Below the pieces are notes generated by a model. It had not been told where the DNA came from and searched no databases. It saw only the letters and a program-made list of their open reading frames with translations. Shown in pieces: positions 2,662 through 48,087 of a stretch of 64,000 bases of DNA (its first letter is position 1; each line of letters opens with the position of its first letter). Source of the stretch: a virus (lineage: Duplodnaviria; Caudoviricetes); the IMG/VR virus record IMGVR_UViG_3300028591_000104, positions 32,001 through 96,000 of that record, one strand, 5' to 3'. Made by a program: the position numbers and the translations under genes.

Positions 2662-2714
2662 TTAGAGACGTTTATTTAGAAGGGTTTTCATTTGCGTCTT
2701 TAAATAATTTATGA

Positions 2715-3195
2715 AACTCTTTCCCAAACTCCGAGAGCTAACGGCTAACACTTAGGGTGGTCTTAAGGCGGGACAGGTTGAGTTAGCAGGAGTATAATTA
2801 CCCGAAGTTAAAAACATCATAGGCAAGATGGACTCAAATCAACCGGTTAATGGTTTGAGAGATCTCCACCTGAAGGACCAGGTCTAGGCAGACAGTATTG
2901 CCCTAGATACAACAGTACCCGATTGCATGCCCGAATTTCGACCATAGTGTGGGAGTCGTAGAACGGAGTGAAGCTGAAGGTTTTTAGCGATTTTAGTTTA
3001 ATGGTTGTTATGAGGCTAGAAAGCAGCATCAGGGTAGCTGTAGGCAGGTAGACGAAAGTGATAGCCTTTAACCGATTACAAATAACGGGAAGTCTCAAAT
3101 GAGATTGGGGTTCAATTCCCCCTAGCCTTGTAAGAGCCATTAAACCCCCTCGGTGGTCTGTAACCGGGGTGTGCGGTAAACGTAAGGTTTAAGGC
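2715..3195 (+). ncRNA. Large structured non-coding RNA candidate with terminal T-arm-like hairpin
   Basis: GC-richer, no credible ORF; long helix 2996-3019/3122-3145 enclosing GGGGTTCAATTCCCC. Confidence 0.55.
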
Positions 3196-3203
3196 TTTTA
3201 TAT

Positions 3204-4774: not shown

Positions 4775-4860
4775 GGAAGAGTAAACCGTAATTGGTAGCG
4801 GGCGTGGCTGTAGACCACGTGTCAGTGACTCTGGGGGTTCAAGTCCCTCCTCTTCCACCA
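4775..4860 (+). tRNA. tRNA-Tyr(GTA), G1:C72
   Basis: CGTGG-CTGTAGA-CCACG, variable arm, A73 CCA. Confidence 0.9.
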
Positions 4861-4865
4861 TTTAT

Positions 4866-5418
4866 CGAAGCATCTTCTAATGGTTAGGAAACTTGTCTGA
4901 TTTGAAGAATTAATCATTAATTTTAAACTATGTTAAATACAAAACAGCGTGGAAACATAACAGAATTACAATGTATGTTAGCATTTTTAAAATTAGGATA
5001 CAATGTATTAACTCCTTAGGGTGATTGCGAACGATATGATTTTGTAGTAGATATAAAAGGTAATTTTTATAGAATACAAGTTAAATCGGCGAATGCAAAC
5101 CACCTAGAAGAAGGATATATAGTATTTAATACTTCTAATAAAACTACTAGGGGAGGAACTTTTGTTCGTCATCCATACACAAAAGATGAAATTGATTATT
5201 TCGCAACATTTTTTAATGAGCAATGTTATTTAGTACCAGTGAATGAATGTAGTATTTTTGAAAAAAGATTACGATTTACTCCTCCAAAAAATGGACATAC
5301 TAAAGGAATAACATTTGCTACTGAATATGAATTAGAAAAGGTGGTGAAAAAAATAATTAATGAATAACATCTTTGAATCAAGCAAGTAATGGTAGTTCGA
5401 TTCTATCTGCTTCGACCA
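4866..5418 (+). tRNA. tRNA-Ile(GAT) interrupted after the anticodon by a 478-nt insertion (exons 4866-4901, 5380-5418)
   Basis: Joined halves give CGAAGCA/TGCTTCG acceptor, CTTGT-CTGATAA-GCAAG anticodon arm, GGTAG-TTCGATT-CTATC T arm, ACCA. Confidence 0.85.
4930..5367 (+). CDS. PD-(D/E)XK endonuclease inside the tRNA-Ile insertion; in-frame TAG 5017
   Basis: MLNTKQRGNITELQCMLAFLKLGYNVLTP*GDCERYDFVVDIKGNFYRIQVKS; paralogous to 4367 and 7617. Confidence 0.88.
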
Positions 5419-5419
5419 A

Positions 5420-5995
5420 TGCTCTGGCGCTAGGTCTAAGAGGATAAATTATTTATCTAGCTAACTGCGGGGAAGGAAGTTAAACCGACGAAGAGACTGC
5501 GAGGGTTTACTAGGTCGCGTTGAGGCAGTAATGCCAATAGTGGGTAAGCACCAGGGATGGAAACGCAGAGAGTTCCGAAAAACCTAGTTTTTATTTAGTT
5601 CCTAACCAAATATCCAGAGTATTTTCTTAACAGCCCGTCTGGAGGCGTAGGTTATTGAAAGCACCGCAGTGGATTGACGCTGCTAAGACCAGACAGCTGG
5701 CGAATGAGTATTCCTGAATTGCCAGGAAGGTGTGCACCGCACTGGGCCTGCGGGTCCACCCACCTCATACTTGCGGGAGATATAAATGAGACAGAGGGAA
5801 CTCCAGTGATAGATTCGCTGCGCGCGGAGGTTGTGCTCCGCTGAGGGAAGTAGGCCCCTGACACAAGCACTGACCAAGGTAGTAACAGTCCTTGGTAAAC
5901 TGGCAAGCCGATATGCGTCCAGTGCTTTTAATCTCAAAGTGAGAGCGTGGTTCGAGTCCACCTACCTCCCTTAACCGGGGGGTGCAGGTGCAATA
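5420..5995 (+). ncRNA. Large structured non-coding RNA candidate(s)
   Basis: GC-rich; closing helices 5420-5427/5614-5621 and 5641-5650/5962-5969; T-arm GTGG-TTCGAGT-CCAC. Confidence 0.55.
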
Positions 5996-6011
5996 CCTTT
6001 GAGATTATTAT

Positions 6012-6981: not shown

Positions 6982-7351
6982 GGGGGTGTAATAGGTTTCG
7001 ACAGGGTTAAAAAGTTTAGATAAGCGAACAGAGGATTCTCGTTGTGCCTCTATAAAAAACGAGAACTTTTAAATATAATCGCTAATGATTACGCTTTAGC
7101 AGCCTGATAATGCTGCCGTTTACTTTATTTAATCTGTAAGATAAGGTAAATGTACGGTTTCAGACCTTGATTATTAGAGGTGAAATAATCAAAACTTATT
7201 TTAGTGGTTCGGCTAAGATATTTTATTCAGAACTCCTTGATTATTAATTTGCCAATAGAGGAATAATTAAAGGATAAATAAATATTGGCTATGTTCGTAG
7301 AAAGTCTAAGGTTTTTAGTTTTGGACAGGGGTTCGACTCCCCTCACTTCCA
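6982..7351 (+). ncRNA. ssrA: tmRNA; tag ORF 7081-7107 ANDYALAA-TGA
   Basis: 5' GGGGGTGTAATAGGTTTCGAC, 3' GGACAGGGGTTCGACTCCCCTCACTTCCA, G3:U70, YALAA tag. Confidence 0.95.
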
Positions 7352-10606: not shown

Positions 10607-10697
10607 CGGGCGGTATGCAAGTGGTCAAAGTACGCGGACTCTAACTCCGATGCCAGTAGCTAAGGCTTCGCAGGTTCGAATCCTGCCCGCCCGACCA
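10607..10697 (+). tRNA. Amber-decoding tRNA (anticodon CTA at 10641-10643), tRNA-Tyr-like class II body, C1:G72, A73
   Basis: CGGGCGG/CCGCCCG-A-CCA; GCGGA-CTCTAAC-TCCG (cf. Tyr GCGGACTGTAAATCCG); long variable arm; GCAGG-TTCGAAT-CCTGC. Confidence 0.92.
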
Positions 10698-12354: not shown

Positions 12355-12428
12355 GCGGGATATGGTCTAGAGGGCTAAGACGCCGGCGCGGAGCCGGAGA
12401 CGTGAGGTTCGAATCCCACTATTCTGCA
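12355..12428 (+). tRNA. Degenerate tRNA-Pro(CGG)-like element, no CCA
   Basis: D arm and GGTTCGAATCC T arm present; aberrant loop CGCGGAG. Confidence 0.5.
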
Positions 12429-12487
12429 ATTATTGTTTTCTAAGAAGTCTCCGGCTTATAAATTCCGCTACACATTTTTTAATAAAA

Positions 12488-12717
12488 ACGACACATGCAG
12501 CAATTTTTACATGATTGATAATCAGAGAAACCGCTCATTTCTTTTTATGTCGTGTCGTGTATTTAAACCGAAAGACCCTTACAGCAACTTATTTAGGAAA
12601 ATTATTAAATTTAGCTGGATAATGTTCACAAACAGGGTCTTGTATTTTTTAGAAAGACGCACTCAGCAACTCTTGAAAATGTCTGCAATTTGGTATGTTG
12701 ATGAAAAAACGCGTCTT
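12488..12717 (+). repeat. Three tandem stem-loop units GAC-N6/7-CAGCAA...GTC
   Basis: ACGACAC/GTGTCGT, AAGACCCT/AGGGTCTT, AAGACGC/GCGTCTT, each followed by CAGCAA. Confidence 0.75.
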
Positions 12718-12735
12718 GGAAAGGAGAAAAAGGAT

Positions 12736-14277
12736 ATGGATTTTTATGGTATGATGAAGAATGGTGCAACTCAGAGAACAGAGAATGGGGCAGTAGGTTA
12801 CGTGACCTCCAAGTCCGCCCTTGTCGATCTTAACTTTGCTACTGGGTCTATGCGTAATATGTCTGAGGACGAAATCGTTGATAGATTCTGGAATGCTTGG
12901 AACGAGGACCAGGTTCTAGCTTTGCGTTGGCTTTTCTTCGCAAGAGATATTCGTAATGGTGGTATGGGAGAGCGTAGAACTTTCCGTACTATTCTTGGGG
13001 ATTTAGTCTACAATGATATAATCCCTTCTGATAAGTATTTCTCTCTCTATAAGTTGATTGAAAAGTATGGAAGGCTTGATGACTTTATCAATCTTATTGA
13101 TATTGTCACAGGTGAGCAGAAGGAAGCTCTTGTTGAGGTTCTTTCTATGGGTCTTGCAGCTGATACTGTAGCTATGCTTCAGAAGAAGCCTGTTACTCTG
13201 TTGGCTAAATGGATGCCCTCTATCAATACTTCCTCAAAGGAAACAAAAGCTCGTGCTGCTAAGTTAGCTCAGGCTTTCCATATCACACATAGAGAGTATC
13301 GTATGATGTTGTCTAAGCTTCGTGCTTATATTGACGTAACTGAAGTTAGAGCTTCGGCTAATGATTGGGATAAGATTGACTATTCAAAGGTTCCTTCTTA
13401 TGCTAATATTAGATTTGCTAATGCTTTCTTGAAGCATGACCAGGAGAGAAGAGAAAAGTATCTTGAATCCTTGAAGAAGGGCGAGACTAAGATTAACGCT
13501 GGAACTTTGTTCCCTTATAACATTGTTCATAAATATGGTGGTCATTATTTCTGGTCACGCATTTCTTCTGTAGATGATACTCTTGAGCAGCTTTGGAAGG
13601 CTTTGCCTGACTATGAACTTAGAAATACTCTTGTAGTAGCTGATGGTTCTGGTTCAATGAGAACTCGAATTAGTGGCGGTTCTGAAGTGACTGCTCTTGA
13701 AGTAGCTAACTCTATTGCCATCTATGCTTCAGAGCACAATGAAGGTGTATTTGCGGATAAGTACATTACATTCTCAGGACACCCTGAGTTTGTAGAGTTC
13801 AGACGCCAAGACACTCTTCACAAGAAGCTTAATAAGGCTTATGAACACGATGAGTGCGCAAACACCAACATCGAGGCCGTATTTGAGCTTATCCTTCATA
13901 CAGCAGTACACAACAATGTACCTGCCAATGAGATGCCTGAGAGAATCCTTATTATCTCTGATATGGAGTTCGACGATGCAACTCATGGCAAAGGTTGGTG
14001 GGATAATGGAAACTGGAAGGCTCCTGATAAGGCGCTTTTCGAGGAAATCGCTGAAGCATATGCCGATAGAGGATATAAGCTTCCTAAGCTCGTATTCTGG
14101 AACGTATGCTCTAGAACTAACACAATCCCCGTACAGGAGAATGAGTTAGGTGTAGCACTCGTATCCGGTTTCTCACCCGCTATCTTTGATATGGTGATGA
14201 GCGATGAAGTAGACCCCTATAAGATCCTCGTAGCTAAGCTTGAGGGTTATAAGGATGCTGATAAGCTCCTTAATTAA
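12736..14277 (+). CDS. DUF2828 / vWA (TROVE/Ro60-like) protein
   Basis: RTENGA, ARDIRNGGMGER, AKWMPS, MIDAS DGSGSM, NTNIEAVF, ISDMEFD, VFWNV; RBS AAGGAG supports ATG 12736. Confidence 0.85.
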   Translation: MDFYGMMKNGATQRTENGAVGYVTSKSALVDLNFATGSMRNMSEDEIVDRFWNAWNEDQVLALRWLFFARDIRNGGMGERRTFRTILGDLVYNDIIPSDKYFSLYKLIEKYGRLDDFINLIDIVTGEQKEALVEVLSMGLAADTVAMLQKKPVTLLAKWMPSINTSSKETKARAAKLAQAFHITHREYRMMLSKLRAYIDVTEVRASANDWDKIDYSKVPSYANIRFANAFLKHDQERREKYLESLKKGETKINAGTLFPYNIVHKYGGHYFWSRISSVDDTLEQLWKALPDYELRNTLVVADGSGSMRTRISGGSEVTALEVANSIAIYASEHNEGVFADKYITFSGHPEFVEFRRQDTLHKKLNKAYEHDECANTNIEAVFELILHTAVHNNVPANEMPERILIISDMEFDDATHGKGWWDNGNWKAPDKALFEEIAEAYADRGYKLPKLVFWNVCSRTNTIPVQENELGVALVSGFSPAIFDMVMSDEVDPYKILVAKLEGYKDADKLLN

Positions 14278-16134: not shown

Positions 16135-16219
16135 TGGGGGGTGTCCGAGTGGTTAATGGAGCCAGGCTTTGACCCTGGTAGCTTAGCTTTCGTGGGTTCG
16201 AATCCCACCCCCTCAGCCA
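16135..16219 (+). tRNA. tRNA-Gln(TTG) with extended variable arm
   Basis: U1:A72, G73; CCAGG-CTTTGAC-CCTGG; AGCTTAGCT variable hairpin. Confidence 0.85.
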
Positions 16220-25863: not shown

Positions 25864-26121
25864 ATGAAATATGTAACTCATAGATTTTTTTGCCCTCGAT
25901 GCGGCGAGGAGACTCTGCCCGTGGTCAGAAGCACTAGTAAGTTGCGCGAGAGAGGTCACTTAAAGAAATTATATTGTTATCACTGTAATATGACCTTAAA
26001 TATGGTAGAGTGCAGAGATGAGTTTGAGGTAAGAGCATTTAAAGAAGCATTTTTAGCTGGTGATTTAGCTGAAATAGTAGATGAAAGTGAGATAATTGAT
26101 TGGAATGGGAAAAATAATTAA
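25864..26121 (+). CDS. Zn-ribbon protein resembling ribosomal protein L33
   Basis: CPRC...HLKKLYCYHC pattern. Confidence 0.5.
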   Translation: MKYVTHRFFCPRCGEETLPVVRSTSKLRERGHLKKLYCYHCNMTLNMVECRDEFEVRAFKEAFLAGDLAEIVDESEIIDWNGKNN

Positions 26122-26602
26122 TATAATGATAGGACTACCTGGATGCGGCAAGTCAACTTACTGTAAGAAGATAAAGGAAGAATGGAATAACATAGCTTAT
26201 ATTTCTCGTGACGAGGTAAGATTGGAAATCTTAGGACCGAACGAGCCATTCTTCGCTAAGGAAACAATAGTTTATAATACTTTTATAGACAGAATAAACC
26301 AGGCATTAGCTTCTGATGTTAATGAGATTTACATAGATGCTACTCACATCAACTCTTCTTCCAGATTAAAGCTGTTGAGAAGATTAAACCTTAAGGGTGA
26401 TGAAGAGATTTGCTATTACATCTTTGATGTACCTTTGCAAGAGTGTATGCGCAGAAACCGTTTGCGTACAGGAGTCGCAAGAGTACCAGATAGCGCGATT
26501 CGTGACATGAACGCCCGCGCGCAGTTTTTTATAACAGATGCGGAAACTAGAAGTTTTAATCCTGTTGCTTATATGGTAGATTATAAAGGAGAAATAGAAT
26601 AA
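26105..26602 (+). CDS. P-loop kinase (AAA_33 / polynucleotide kinase-like)
   Basis: GLPGCGKST, SRDEVR, IDATH, CMRRNRLR. Confidence 0.85.
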   Translation: MGKIINIMIGLPGCGKSTYCKKIKEEWNNIAYISRDEVRLEILGPNEPFFAKETIVYNTFIDRINQALASDVNEIYIDATHINSSSRLKLLRRLNLKGDEEICYYIFDVPLQECMRRNRLRTGVARVPDSAIRDMNARAQFFITDAETRSFNPVAYMVDYKGEIE

Positions 26603-44042: not shown

Positions 44043-45137
44043 ATGTCTTATTTGATAGATTTTATCAAAGAAAATCCTGATTGGAGAGAGCTTTTGGCTA
44101 AGGAGCCTTATTGCTTGAAGATTAAGGATGAGGATAATTATACTCTTTTTATGTATAATCAGTTATGCTCTGATTTCTATAATCCAATAGTAAAGGAAGC
44201 TAGAGGTATAATTTTAGACCTCACGGGCAAGGAGCCTCGTGTAGTGTGCAGAGCCTTTGATAAGTTTGGTAACTATGGCGAAGGTTATGTTGATTCCATA
44301 GACTGGTCTTCCGCTGTAGTACAGGAGAAGGTAGATGGTTCTATTATGAAGCTTTGGTTTGATAAGGGCTCTTGGCATGTATCTACTAATTCTTGTATCA
44401 ATGCATTTAATGCACAGTTGTCTAACTCTAAAATAACTTTTGGTAAGTTGTTCACGCAGGCTTTTCCTTCTGACAAGATAAATCAGTTGGATACGGATTA
44501 TACTTATATCTTTGAGCTTGTGTCTCCTTACAACCGGGTTGTAATCAACTATGGCTCTGATACTAAGTTGTATCTGTTGGGTAAGAGAAATAATAAGACA
44601 GGCTTTGAGGAAATACCTGAAGATTTGGGTATAGCTAAGCCGGATACTTATCCTCTCTCTTCCCTTGAGGAGTGTATTGAAGCAGCTAATGCTTTGAATG
44701 ATAATGAAGAAGATATTCAGTATGAAGGTTTTGTAGTAGTAGATGAGGCTTTTCATCGAGTAAAGATTAAGTCCCCCTACTATGTAGCTAGACATCATAT
44801 ACTTACTAAGACACCTTCTCTTGAAGACTTGGTATTAGTATATTTGCGTCATGAGCAGGAAGAGTTTTTAACTTACTTCCCAGCTTATACTCATCCTTTG
44901 AATCTTATCTATTTCTTCTTCTCTGACTTGGACTATTATATGTTTAAGGCTAGACTTGATTGGAATAATATGAACAAAGATAGAAAGGCTTTTGCCATCA
45001 AGTATAAGAATCATCCTTTTACTCATTTTTATTTCGATGCTATAAAGAATGAAGATTGGTCTATTGAAAGAGTAAAGAATTTGTCTACTGCTGAACTTGC
45101 GAGATTTATAAAGAATTATTATGGAGGAAATATATGA
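44043..45137 (+). CDS. RNA ligase, T4 Rnl1-like
   Basis: EARGII, FDKFGN, EKVDGS, FELVSP.NRVV, EGFVV, RVKIKS. Confidence 0.88.
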   Translation: MSYLIDFIKENPDWRELLAKEPYCLKIKDEDNYTLFMYNQLCSDFYNPIVKEARGIILDLTGKEPRVVCRAFDKFGNYGEGYVDSIDWSSAVVQEKVDGSIMKLWFDKGSWHVSTNSCINAFNAQLSNSKITFGKLFTQAFPSDKINQLDTDYTYIFELVSPYNRVVINYGSDTKLYLLGKRNNKTGFEEIPEDLGIAKPDTYPLSSLEECIEAANALNDNEEDIQYEGFVVVDEAFHRVKIKSPYYVARHHILTKTPSLEDLVLVYLRHEQEEFLTYFPAYTHPLNLIYFFFSDLDYYMFKARLDWNNMNKDRKAFAIKYKNHPFTHFYFDAIKNEDWSIERVKNLSTAELARFIKNYYGGNI

Positions 45138-46057
45138 TTAATATAAAGCATTTTATGGATATACAAAATTTAATAGAGAATGAGACAGCAATTAAGGCTT
45201 CTAATGCTAAGGCATTTGAGGTTGGTGATATTATACAAATAACAGAGAAGTGGGACGGTTCAAATGCTTCTGTCGGTTATGATGCTGATTCTGATAGTCT
45301 TGTTGCTTTTTCTAGAAAGCAGACTCTGTCTTTGGGAAATACTCTTAATGGCTTTTGGGATTATGTTCAGGGATTGGACAAGACTGGTTTTAAGGCTAAT
45401 CCCACATATAGAGTATTCGGTGAGTGGGGAAATAAGAATAAGATAATTTATAATGCTGACAATTACAAGAAGTGGTATGTTTATGATATTTTTGATATGG
45501 GTACAGAGAAGTGGCTACCACAGGATATTGTAAAGAAGTTTTGTAATGACTATGGATTTATTTATATCCATGTTCTTTATGAGGGTCCGTTCATTTCATG
45601 GGACCACTGCAGAAGCTTTATGAATAGCCCTGCTTATGGAGATAGACAGGAGGGTGTGGTTGTTAAGAATCAGACAAAGCTTAATGACCCTAATACAAGA
45701 CAGCCTTTTTACCTTAAGATTGTCAATGAGGATTTTAAGGAGACAAAGGCTCCTAAGGTTGTTGACCCCGAGCAGGAGGCTAAGAAGGTTTATGCTTATT
45801 CTCTTGCCGAGAGTATTGTAACCAAGAATAGAATTGAAAAGATGATATATAAGCTCAGAGATGAGCAGCTTATTCCTGATACACTTACTCCTGGAGATAT
45901 GGGTAAGCTGGCTAAGGTACTTCCTAAGAGAATCTATGAGGATTGCGTTAAGGAGGAGCCTGAGACCATTGCAAAGGTTAATGACACTGGAATAAACTTT
46001 AGTAAGGTTTGTGGAACTCTGACTATGAAGATTGCAAGAGACATTATTTGCAATTAA
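45134..46057 (+). CDS. RNA ligase, Rnl2-like
   Basis: TEKWDGSN, FGEW, YDI, EGVVVKN. Confidence 0.85.
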   Translation: MINIKHFMDIQNLIENETAIKASNAKAFEVGDIIQITEKWDGSNASVGYDADSDSLVAFSRKQTLSLGNTLNGFWDYVQGLDKTGFKANPTYRVFGEWGNKNKIIYNADNYKKWYVYDIFDMGTEKWLPQDIVKKFCNDYGFIYIHVLYEGPFISWDHCRSFMNSPAYGDRQEGVVVKNQTKLNDPNTRQPFYLKIVNEDFKETKAPKVVDPEQEAKKVYAYSLAESIVTKNRIEKMIYKLRDEQLIPDTLTPGDMGKLAKVLPKRIYEDCVKEEPETIAKVNDTGINFSKVCGTLTMKIARDIICN

Positions 46058-46110: not shown

Positions 46111-48087
46111 ATGAAAGAACAGATTAGGCAAATTATTAATCAGCTTAATGAGGCTACAAAGGCCTACGATGAAGGGCATCCCATGATGAGTGATAAGGCA
46201 TGGGATGACCTCTATTTCTATCTTCAGCAATTAGAGCATCAGTCTGGAATTTATTTTCCAGATAGTCCTACTCAAAAGATTAACTTTGAAATAACTACTC
46301 CATTAAGGAAGGTAGAGCATACTCATTTAATGCTTAGTTTGGATAAAACTAAAGATTTAAATGAAATTAAGACTTTTGTTAAAAAGCATCCATCTATTTG
46401 TATGGGAAAGATGGATGGTTTGACTTGCGCACTGAGGTATAAGGATGGGGAATTAATCGCTGCTGAAACGCGTGGAAATGGTGTAATTGGTGAAGATGTT
46501 TTTTATAATATTATAAATATTAATAATATTCCCAAAAAGATAAAAATAAAAGATGAAGTTGAAGTAGATGGTGAAATTATCTGTAAGTATGATGATTTTG
46601 AGCCATTTGCAGAAGAATATAAGAATCCAAGAAACTTCGCAGCTGGAAGCATTAGATTATTAGACAGCGAAGAATGTGCAAAAAGAAATTTATCTTTTAT
46701 TGCATGGGATTGGATTAATAATCCTTATCCTAGACTTGGTGATGCTTTAGTTGAGTTAAAAGGATTAGGATTTACTACTGTTCCTTATTGGGATGGAATT
46801 ATAACAGAGTTTGAGATTGATAATTTAAATGAAATTGTTGATTTTGTTAAAAATTCTTGTGCCAATGAAAAGCTCCCAATAGATGGATTAGTATTTAAGT
46901 ATGATTATGTGACAGATTATAAAGCTGAAGGTAGAACAACTCATCACTTTAGAGGTGGTTTAGCTTTTAAGTTTTATGATGAATGTGTTGAGACCGAAAT
47001 TGAAGATATAGAGTGGTCTATGGGCAGAGAAGGCAGATTAACTCCTGTAGCGATTTTTAAGCCTATAGAGCTTGAAGGAACTGAGGTATCAAGAGCAAGT
47101 CTTCATAATTTAAGTGTTCTTGATGAACTTTGCGGCGGCCAGGCGCCTATGCGTGGTGACATAGTCAGCGTGTACAAGGCGAATCAAATTATACCTCAGA
47201 TTGATATATGGACAACGACCATTGAGCCTCCTGACTATTTTTCAGTTGACCAGGGTTTAGGTGATATGTTAGCACCGCCTGAGGTATGTCCAATATGCGG
47301 CGGCCGCACCGAAATAATAGAAGAAGATTCTGGTACAAAGAATCTCTAGTGTACAAATGACGCTTGCCCCGGTAAGCTAATAAATAGATTAGTTCACTAT
47401 TGCGATATGAAAAAGGGCATGGCAATTAAAGGACTTTCTGAGAAATTAATTTCTCGTTTTATGAACAAAGGTTGGCTTAATAGTTTTTTTGATTTATACA
47501 ATTTACACCAGTTCCGTACAGATATGGAAAAAATGGAAGGACTGGGACCGAAATCCGTAGATAATATATTAACCGCAATAGAAGAAAGTAAAAATTGTGA
47601 ATTATGGCAATTTATCTCTGCTCTTGGTATTCCTCTTATCGGAACCACCGCGAGCAAAGACCTTGCGAACCATTTCAGTACTTGGGCAAACTTTTATAAA
47701 TCAATTAAGGAAAATTTCATATATAGTACACTTCCAAATTTTGGTTTTGAAATGAATAAGGCGCTTCATGACTATGATTATAGCGAAGCCGAAAAGATAG
47801 CGGCTATCCTTAATTTTAAAGAACCAAAAGCAGAAGAAATTATAAGCGAAATTTTACAAGGCAAGAAAATTTGCATAACAGGTAAATTGGTTCAGTTTAA
47901 GAACCGGAGTTTGTTCCAGGAGGCTGTTGAAGCTAGAGGCGGCAAGGTGGTGTCTGGTGTGACAGGAGCTACAGACTTCTTGGTAACTAATGACACAGAA
48001 AGCGGTACTGCTAAAAATCAAGCAGCTAAAAAATTAAACATACCTATTATGTCAGAAGAAGATTTTATCAAAAATTTCTTGACTTAA
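46111..48087 (+). CDS. ligA: NAD-dependent DNA ligase; TAG 47347 within the Zn finger
   Basis: KMDG, NPRNFAAGS, CPICG..NL*CTNDACP, HhH, BRCT in one frame. Confidence 0.93.

Follow-up and report, generated by a model that had tools for sequence, protein, structure and literature searches.

The tRNA-Ile(GAU) gene of a phage is interrupted in its anticodon loop by an insert that encodes an endonuclease, and the question is whether this insert is an intron that is removed from the transcript or a selfish gene that disables the tRNA. The window, by which we mean the whole stretch of 64,000 nucleotides that was analysed, corresponds to bases 32001-96000 of a virus record with a total size of 150,486 bp and contains 26 tRNA genes plus one tmRNA. 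The 5' half of the tRNA (positions 1-36) is located at 4866..4901 on the plus strand and ends with the anticodon GAT (4899-4901), while the 3' half (positions 37-76, with an encoded CCA) is located at 5380..5418 on the same strand. The two halves are separated by an insert of 478 nt (4902..5379, plus strand), and the split gene is flanked by a gene for tRNA-Tyr (4775-4860) on one side and a GC-rich unannotated stretch on the other. ARAGORN called no tRNA on the native unspliced stretch. Deletion of 4902-5379 in silico yielded a tRNA-Ile(gat) of 75 nt with four stems, a 7-nt loop (CUGAUAA) and the encoded CCA, and the joined halves read CTTGTCTGAT^AAGCAAGTAATGG across the predicted junction. 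Since T4901 differs from C5379, and T4902 from A5380, the break cannot slide and is fixed between positions 36 and 37. Both the complete tRNA and the site of interruption agree to the nucleotide with the original prediction. The claim that the window contains no other tRNA-Ile(GAT) also held, and it extends to the whole 150,486-bp genome, in which the sole other Ile tRNA has the anticodon TAT.

The insert consists almost entirely of a homing-endonuclease ORF of 145 codons plus TAA (4930..5367, plus strand), leaving a 5' flank of 28 nt (4902..4929, plus strand) and a 3' flank of 12 nt (5368..5379, plus strand), the latter ending with ATC, the complement of the anticodon. There is no Shine-Dalgarno-like run upstream of the ATG in the 28-nt flank. 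The ORF matches PF11645 (PDDEXK_5) over its full length (E = 2e-32, 112 bits versus a cut-off of 26) and aligns with I-Ssp6803I (PDB 2OST, E = 1e-13), and E12, D37 and Q50-x-K52 are invariant among 13 relatives (alignment A3). At E <= 1e-20, this large family comprises 620 clusters in the database. Thus, a PD-(D/E)XK ORF with short flanks was correctly recognised in the original prediction; what was overlooked is that the ORF is broken in the standard code by an in-frame TAG at codon 30 (5017..5019, plus strand).

This TAG faces the Tyr of TPYGDCERYDF, which is kept in 29 of 33 homologues. Genome-wide alignments to four other phage genomes gave a similar picture: 60 of 81 aligned in-frame TAG codons with conserved flanks faced Tyr, and both TAG positions in the large terminase aligned with Tyr, in 21 of 22 and 17 of 22 homologues, respectively. 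In-frame TAG codons are abundant in the late genes on the minus strand (105-148 kb in the genome, L154-L156), and a suppressor tRNA(CUA) with a long variable arm and A73 is encoded at 10607..10697 on the plus strand. As judged from these alignments, the phage reads TAG as Tyr and not as Gln, so that the endonuclease ORF is whole in the code of its own phage; gene callers truncate the endonuclease for the same reason. In other recoded phages, the relatives L215, L216 and L219 have TAG at Gln positions instead, which suggests that the endonuclease gene is adapted to the code of the resident phage. Database relatives had been translated automatically with Q at the TAG sites. The closest relative of the suppressor tRNA (66%) is an 85-nt tRNA with the anticodon UUG (nominally Gln) and a long variable arm at 16135-16219. 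It has been proposed by Borges et al. that recoded in-frame stops should postpone the production of intron homing endonucleases until late in the infection (bioRxiv 10.1101/2021.08.26.457843). The endonuclease considered here would be made solely when the TAG=Tyr suppressor tRNA of the phage is present.

To examine whether the insert contains a ribozyme, we searched for the intron families in Rfam. None was found in the window at the gathering score, and none at E <= 10 in the segment 4700-5700. Nor were there any matches at E <= 1 in 20 related loci, in which tRNAs, ROOL, tmRNA, twister and HDV-like RNAs were readily found. The terminal guanosine of group I introns (omega-G) is absent, the last base being C5379, and the inserts of the relatives end with C or A, never with G. 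Likewise, there is no U-G wobble at the 5' splice site as in the P1 helix of group I introns; U4901 is paired with A5377 at the 3' end of the insert, and the Ala-type copies have C36:G at this place. The 40 nt outside the ORF provide no room for a group I core (P3-P9, ~150-200 nt), and RNAalifold detected no conserved helices inside the ORF in an alignment of 21 inserts. The insert also lacks the signs of a group II intron (5' GUGYG, 3' AY and domain V): it starts with UUGAAG, ends with AAUC and shows no Rfam match over its 478 nt. The expectation that the flanks are too small for a group I or group II core is thereby confirmed, as conserved structure is confined to the ends, and the covariance-model search for group I introns proposed at the outset came out negative for this insert and for the related loci alike. 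Together, the searches against Rfam, the consensus fold and the identity of the terminal bases led us to reject a cryptic ribozyme in the insert.

Two GC-rich and apparently structured stretches of ~550-590 nt are located between tRNA genes in the window, at 5420-6010 and 2662-3203. The former, an unclassified RNA of ~590 nt, begins 2 nt past the split tRNA. At E <= 1, Rfam returned no match to it; neither of the two stretches has a family at the gathering score, and no homologue of either was found beside the other split tRNAs. We therefore discarded the neighbouring RNA as a catalyst acting in trans. ROOL RNAs are present in comparable places of related loci (L031 831-1423 and L002 3114-3438).

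Although devoid of a recognisable ribozyme, the insert is structured at its ends. The original prediction suggested that the boundaries of the insert can pair, and this pairing is present in the minimum-free-energy fold and is accompanied by compensatory changes in the relatives. Here, helix A is formed by the anticodon plus the first seven bases of the insert (4899..4908, plus strand) and by the last ten bases of the insert (5370..5379, plus strand), as shown by the minimum-free-energy fold, RNAalifold and pair counts. It is extended by helix B, in which TCATTAAT in the 5' flank (4914..4921, plus strand) pairs with ATTAATGA in the last codons of the ORF (5356..5363, plus strand). When the whole precursor is folded, both helices are retained in the structure of minimum free energy and the arms of the cloverleaf are intact (z = -4.1), and RNAalifold on the 21 aligned inserts placed conserved structure at the two ends alone. 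Helix A has seven pairs in the relatives, with compensatory changes in six of them (RNAalifold and pair counts), and the equivalent of helix B covaries, for example with the stop codons TAA/TGA versus TTA/TCA. The two helices together make up a rod. The layout around the two junctions is near-symmetric, with 7 pairs, 3 pairs and 7 pairs, and the junctions are located 3 bp apart across one helix.

To quantify the support for the rod, its 13 pairs were counted in an alignment made with MAFFT, into which no structural model had entered. Standard pairs were observed in 91% of the cells, as compared to 72% in shuffled alignments and 39-51% when the strands were slid by 1-3 columns. The covariation score was 0.52, as compared to 0.17 in shuffled alignments and <= 0.12 after sliding by 1-3 columns, and changes on both sides were seen in 12 of the 13 pairs. 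G-U pairs are frequent in the rod, indicating a constraint on the RNA rather than inverted repeats in the DNA. The pairs between the anticodon and the insert (G34:C-1, N35:N-2 and U36:A-3) are kept across the Ile, Asn, Lys and Ala hosts, and the last three bases of the insert track the anticodon: AUC with Ile GAU, AAA with Lys UUU, GCA with Ala UGC, and AGC, including a G-U pair, with Asn GUU. The Ile copies in L005 and L207 retain AGC with an A-G mismatch. By eye, we also noted an internal loop in the Asn- and Lys-type rods, in which a conserved YUGAC is located opposite CUGAUGU (e.g. L009 1466-1480 with 1918-1934). This loop resembles box D plus box C, or a tandem G-A kink-turn, with an imperfect fit, and it is absent from the Ile-type rod of the window.

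The rod differs from the bulge-helix-bulge motif, which consists of two 3-nt bulges separated by a 4-bp helix. No such motif was found; in both the minimum-free-energy and the consensus folds, the junctions fall within a continuous helix or at its edge, and a rod with no bulges at its junctions is not a bulge-helix-bulge. Genes for EndA (PF01974) and RNase III were also absent from five complete genomes of phages that carry the cassette, while archaeal EndA and bacterial RNase III were recovered as positive controls.

We also examined the distribution of the insert in about 45 loci, comprising 33 IMG/VR loci, three MAG contigs and nine contexts of the closest protein relatives. The three MAG contigs are labelled Clostridium sp., Bacillota and Erysipelotrichaceae. 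Nearly all cassettes were located at position 36/37 of genes for tRNA-Asn(GTT), Ile(GAT), Lys(TTT) or Ala(TGC), with homologous inserts of 462-486 nt at this position in about 40 loci. The five closest relatives (77-81% amino-acid identity) reside in five different tRNA-Ile(GAT) genes with perfect stems, and the ends of these inserts are near-identical to those of the insert in the window. The inserts may be 85-97% identical inside exons that are just 62-74% identical, a difference that is compatible both with recent homing and with selection. Related phages contain uninterrupted genes for tRNA-Ile and tRNA-Asn that share these anticodon arms and loops. The insert is thus mobile, as was originally suggested, and the uninterrupted alleles sought in related phages exist, with the same anticodon arms. 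The joined anticodon-arm sequence of this particular tRNA had no exact match in IMG/VR, and the only match to a 24-nt exon word in the metagenome collection was an identical, insert-bearing copy (L204). In a comparison of this phage with the related genome G001, all tRNAs were 48-74% identical and the arrays were rearranged.

Most of the ~35 distinct split tRNAs have flawless cloverleaves. In some copies the ORF is open but the exons are damaged: L014 (1424-1970) carries a duplication of 8 nt in its 5' exon, L030 (1430-1975) no longer has an anticodon stem, and position 33 is a C in L026 (1437-1973). A different context was observed in L216 (740-1310), where a 78%-identical cassette is situated not in a clean anticodon loop but in a long hairpin of the host sequence, and an intact tRNA-Ile(GAT) follows shortly after it. 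The 5' side of this hairpin resembles the anticodon arm of tRNA-Asn, no tRNA body is evident, and the long rod is kept with many G-U pairs; the ORF of this cassette contains three in-frame TAGs, each at a position for Gln, and one of these is the catalytic Q of the QxK motif. The presence of the rod outside a clean anticodon loop suggests that it serves the RNA of the cassette itself. No insert that has lost its ORF was found when the commonest Asn-type ends were searched as gapped patterns at a spacing of 0-60 nt, as compared to 11 full-size copies; a plain scan with 3'-end words was dominated by chance matches.

Sealing of the tRNA halves had been attributed to phage enzymes. The RNA ligase and kinase genes named in the original prediction are real: the window encodes an Rnl1-like RNA ligase (44043-45137, plus strand; PF09511, E = 4e-22), an Rnl2-like RNA ligase (45134-46057, plus strand; PF09414, E = 2e-23) and an AAA_33 kinase (26096-26602; Pfam), as well as a metallophosphoesterase. 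Only if splicing takes place would the two ligases be candidates for the sealing step. Each of the five complete carrier genomes encodes an RNA ligase, the type of which varies. G001, G002 and G005 each encode a protein of ~460 amino acids with a PHA02142 OB domain and a weak match to PF09414, which looks Rnl5-like, and Enterococcus phage EFP01 (G004) encodes RtcB. The Rnl1-like protein of the window was absent from the four other carrier genomes in searches with the protein itself and a positive control. Being unique to this genome among the five, it was dismissed as a ligase shared by the phages that could act as the splicing partner. The split gene is the sole gene for its isoacceptor in four of the five genomes (G000, G001, G004 and G005), and G002 has a spare tRNA-Asn alongside the split one. 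We note in passing that the NAD-dependent DNA ligase of the window is divided into one ORF with the adenylation and OB domains (46111-47349) and another with the HhH and BRCT domains (47407-48087), and that it is a single ORF of 675 amino acids in G001 (L165 398-2425).

How these observations are to be combined is a matter of weighing. We lean towards a selfish endonuclease gene over protein-assisted splicing, and consider the chances of the former to be slightly below even: the cassette would disable a phage tRNA that is dispensable, with the tRNA body and the rod as a scaffold for processing and stability and as a gate on translation. The cassette is a mobile homing-endonuclease element of the I-Ssp6803I family that has no ribozyme. 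Its endonuclease, to judge from its family membership, would cut the intronless DNA of the anticodon arm, and repair of the empty site would copy the cassette into position 36/37. About 40 nt of non-coding sequence of its own fold into the rod in RNA, the last three bases of the insert pairing with the anticodon, the next bases with the first bases of the insert, and the 5' leader with the last codons of the ORF. According to this model, the insert would stay in the transcript and the tRNA-Ile(GAU) gene would be disabled, while the tRNA body and the rod may provide a nuclease-resistant scaffold, processed by RNase P/Z, around the endonuclease mRNA and a gate on its translation. In favour of such a selfish gene, no self-splicing RNA was found, the cassette is mobile and some exons decay while the ORF stays open. 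Further points on the same side are the placement of the rod in L216, the lack of inserts with no ORF, the lack of EndA and RNase III genes, the different ends needed by the ligase families and the spare tRNA-Asn in G002. Against it, junctions 3 bp apart and bases that track the anticodon look like the definition of a splice site, most cloverleaves are flawless, the split gene is the sole isoacceptor in four of five genomes, and every carrier genome examined has an RNA ligase.

The same facts are among the reasons to consider an intron that is removed by proteins, which we regard as possible but rather doubtful. An endonuclease would cut the rod at U36|U+1 and C-1|A37 with a 3-bp stagger, and an RNA ligase would reseal the anticodon loop. 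The cutter could be a host enzyme, an unrecognised phage enzyme or the PD-(D/E)XK protein of the insert acting on RNA; for the sealing, we propose Rnl1/Rnl2 with the kinase and the phosphoesterase in this phage, and the Rnl5-like protein or RtcB in other carriers. Covariation of the insert with the identity of the anticodon, compensatory changes in 12 of 13 rod pairs and the near-symmetric arrangement of 7-3-7 pairs around the two junctions are in line with such a process. So are the flawless exons of most copies, the lack of a spare isoacceptor in G000, G001, G004 and G005, the ligases in all five carriers with a healing kinase and a metallophosphoesterase in the window, and a single previous report of unexplained tRNA introns in phages, namely the Lak phages (PMC6784885). 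However, the junctions are located in a continuous helix rather than in a bulge-helix-bulge, and none of the five genomes has a gene for EndA or RNase III. Moreover, RtcB needs 3'-P and 5'-OH ends and the Rnl enzymes 3'-OH and 5'-P ends; as these are incompatible, one pathway cannot account for all carriers. There are also other reasons why RNA ligases are common in tRNA-rich phages. Intact exons are equally well explained by recent homing, since a cassette that moves often may simply be flanked by young exons, and damaged exons do occur while derivatives with no ORF were not found. Hence, of the earlier proposal of a mobile, protein-spliced tRNA intron sealed by the phage ligases and kinase, the mobility and the lack of a ribozyme stand, whereas splicing and sealing lack a bulge-helix-bulge, an EndA or RNase III gene, and, in four carriers, the Rnl1-like ligase. 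It is doubtful that bacterial viruses carry widespread ribozyme-less mobile tRNA introns that proteins remove from a rod with its two splice sites opposite each other, at a distance of 3 bp, after which phage or host RNA ligases reseal the anticodon loop. The 3' overhangs left by I-Ssp6803I are 3 nt long and would resemble the junctions with their stagger of 3 bp, a likeness that was not used as evidence.

An intron removed by RNA catalysis, with an unrecognised core overlapping the ORF or supplied in trans by a large structured phage RNA, is in our view very unlikely. Group I introns of bacterial tRNAs are known from position 36/37, the same site as the insert. It was in an intron of this kind that the endonuclease family was originally discovered (PMC1995217), and the unclassified RNA of ~590 nt starts 2 nt after the tRNA, in a setting where small ribozymes and ROOL are common in related arrays. 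Speaking against catalysis by RNA, there was no Rfam match even at permissive thresholds, no terminal G, no U-G pair at the 5' junction and neither conserved structure nor covariation inside the ORF, and the neighbouring RNA has no homologue at the other split tRNAs. We assign a very low probability also to a rod that is cut out with no re-ligation, for example by the RNase III of the host as in the intervening sequences of 23S rRNA, whereby the endonuclease mRNA would be released, and the acceptor, D and T arms would keep the two halves of the tRNA together. The rod and the anticodon stem do form a long, near-continuous duplex with internal loops, similar to RNase III substrates, and bacterial hosts have RNase III; but this enzyme leaves 2-nt overhangs while a 3-nt stagger is needed for the exact ends, and a tRNA with a nick or a gap in its anticodon loop would not decode.

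The scaffold proposed for the selfish cassette may be likened to an artificial design. In engineered tRNA scaffolds, a foreign RNA is placed in the anticodon arm via a closing stem, processed by RNase P/Z and shielded from exonucleases. We know of no natural mRNA that has been described to use a tRNA in this manner. Among natural elements, free-standing nuclease genes next to tRNA genes, such as SegB of T4 and the PDDEXK_5 genes of the phages My1 and phi-pp2 and of the haloarchaeal virus HSTV-4, are likewise selfish, intron-less and tied to tRNA clusters. The PDDEXK_5 genes are distant relatives from the same protein family as the ORF of the insert (~28-32% identity). They differ in that they are intergenic and leave the tRNA intact, whereas the gene described here is situated inside the anticodon loop and its ends have evolved to pair with the anticodon. 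Archaeal protein-spliced introns, such as those in rRNA with LAGLIDADG genes, and the tRNA introns of archaea and eukaryotes are similar in having no ribozyme, in their possible homing endonuclease gene and in the pairing with the anticodon, and removal of the insert would likewise need an endonuclease and a ligase. Yet, they depend on a bulge-helix-bulge and EndA and have 37/38 as their canonical site, while the insert has neither and is located at 36/37 in a bacterial virus.

The closest match with respect to the protein is the intron in the tRNA-fMet gene of Synechocystis PCC 6803 that encodes I-Ssp6803I, which is 655 nt in size and contains an ORF of 150 codons and a ribozyme of ~200 nt (PMC1995217). 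The two share the endonuclease family, a tRNA host gene, a site in the anticodon loop and the size of the ORF (150 versus 145 codons). In contrast to this group I intron, the insert is only 478 nt in size, of which 40 nt are non-coding, and it lacks an Rfam match, a terminal G and a conserved core. In the Lak megaphages, 'enigmatic' tRNA introns that fit no known intron class were described by Devoto et al. in 2019 (PMC6784885). These are also inserts outside the known intron classes that interrupt the tRNA genes of a TAG-recoded phage, but they were described with no endonuclease genes, one of them may encode a tRNA, and no analysis of a rod or of mobility was reported (PMC6784885). Beyond the I-Ssp6803I and Lak introns as the nearest cases, we found no description of this architecture of split-tRNA cassettes in the published literature.

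If the insert is spliced, it would represent an undescribed protein-based route of tRNA splicing in bacteria or their viruses, with a new kind of substrate unlike the bulge-helix-bulge, the first case of protein-dependent splicing of a tRNA beyond archaea and eukaryotes, and a new role for the RNA repair enzymes of many large phages. If it is not, a homing endonuclease can shed its intron and thrive by targeting dispensable phage tRNA genes, with the tRNA body as a scaffold for its message. Either way, such genes are overlooked by tRNA finders, and in this phage the sole tRNA-Ile(GAU) gene was hidden. Since there is a cultured carrier, Enterococcus phage EFP01 with the tRNA-Asn version, the question of splicing is directly testable.

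Some other features of the tRNA arrays deserve mention. The tmRNA of the window (tag ANDYALAA) is located within the tRNA array at 6982-7351, and the relatives G001 and L003 also have one. A tRNA-like element called by Rfam at 12356-12427 was missed by ARAGORN and seems to have a loop of 5 nt where the anticodon loop would be. Directly downstream of it is a gene for a DUF2828/DUF7788/vWA protein of 614 amino acids (12433-14277), and the two might constitute a module of a Y-RNA-like RNA and a Ro60-like protein within the RNA-repair gene set. In L024, the 3' end of a split tRNA-Asn is followed immediately by a match to an HDV-like ribozyme (1973-2040) that scores 38 bits, less than the gathering score, and a twister-P1 match was obtained in another tRNA array (L017 717-782). 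Small self-cleaving ribozymes may process such arrays.
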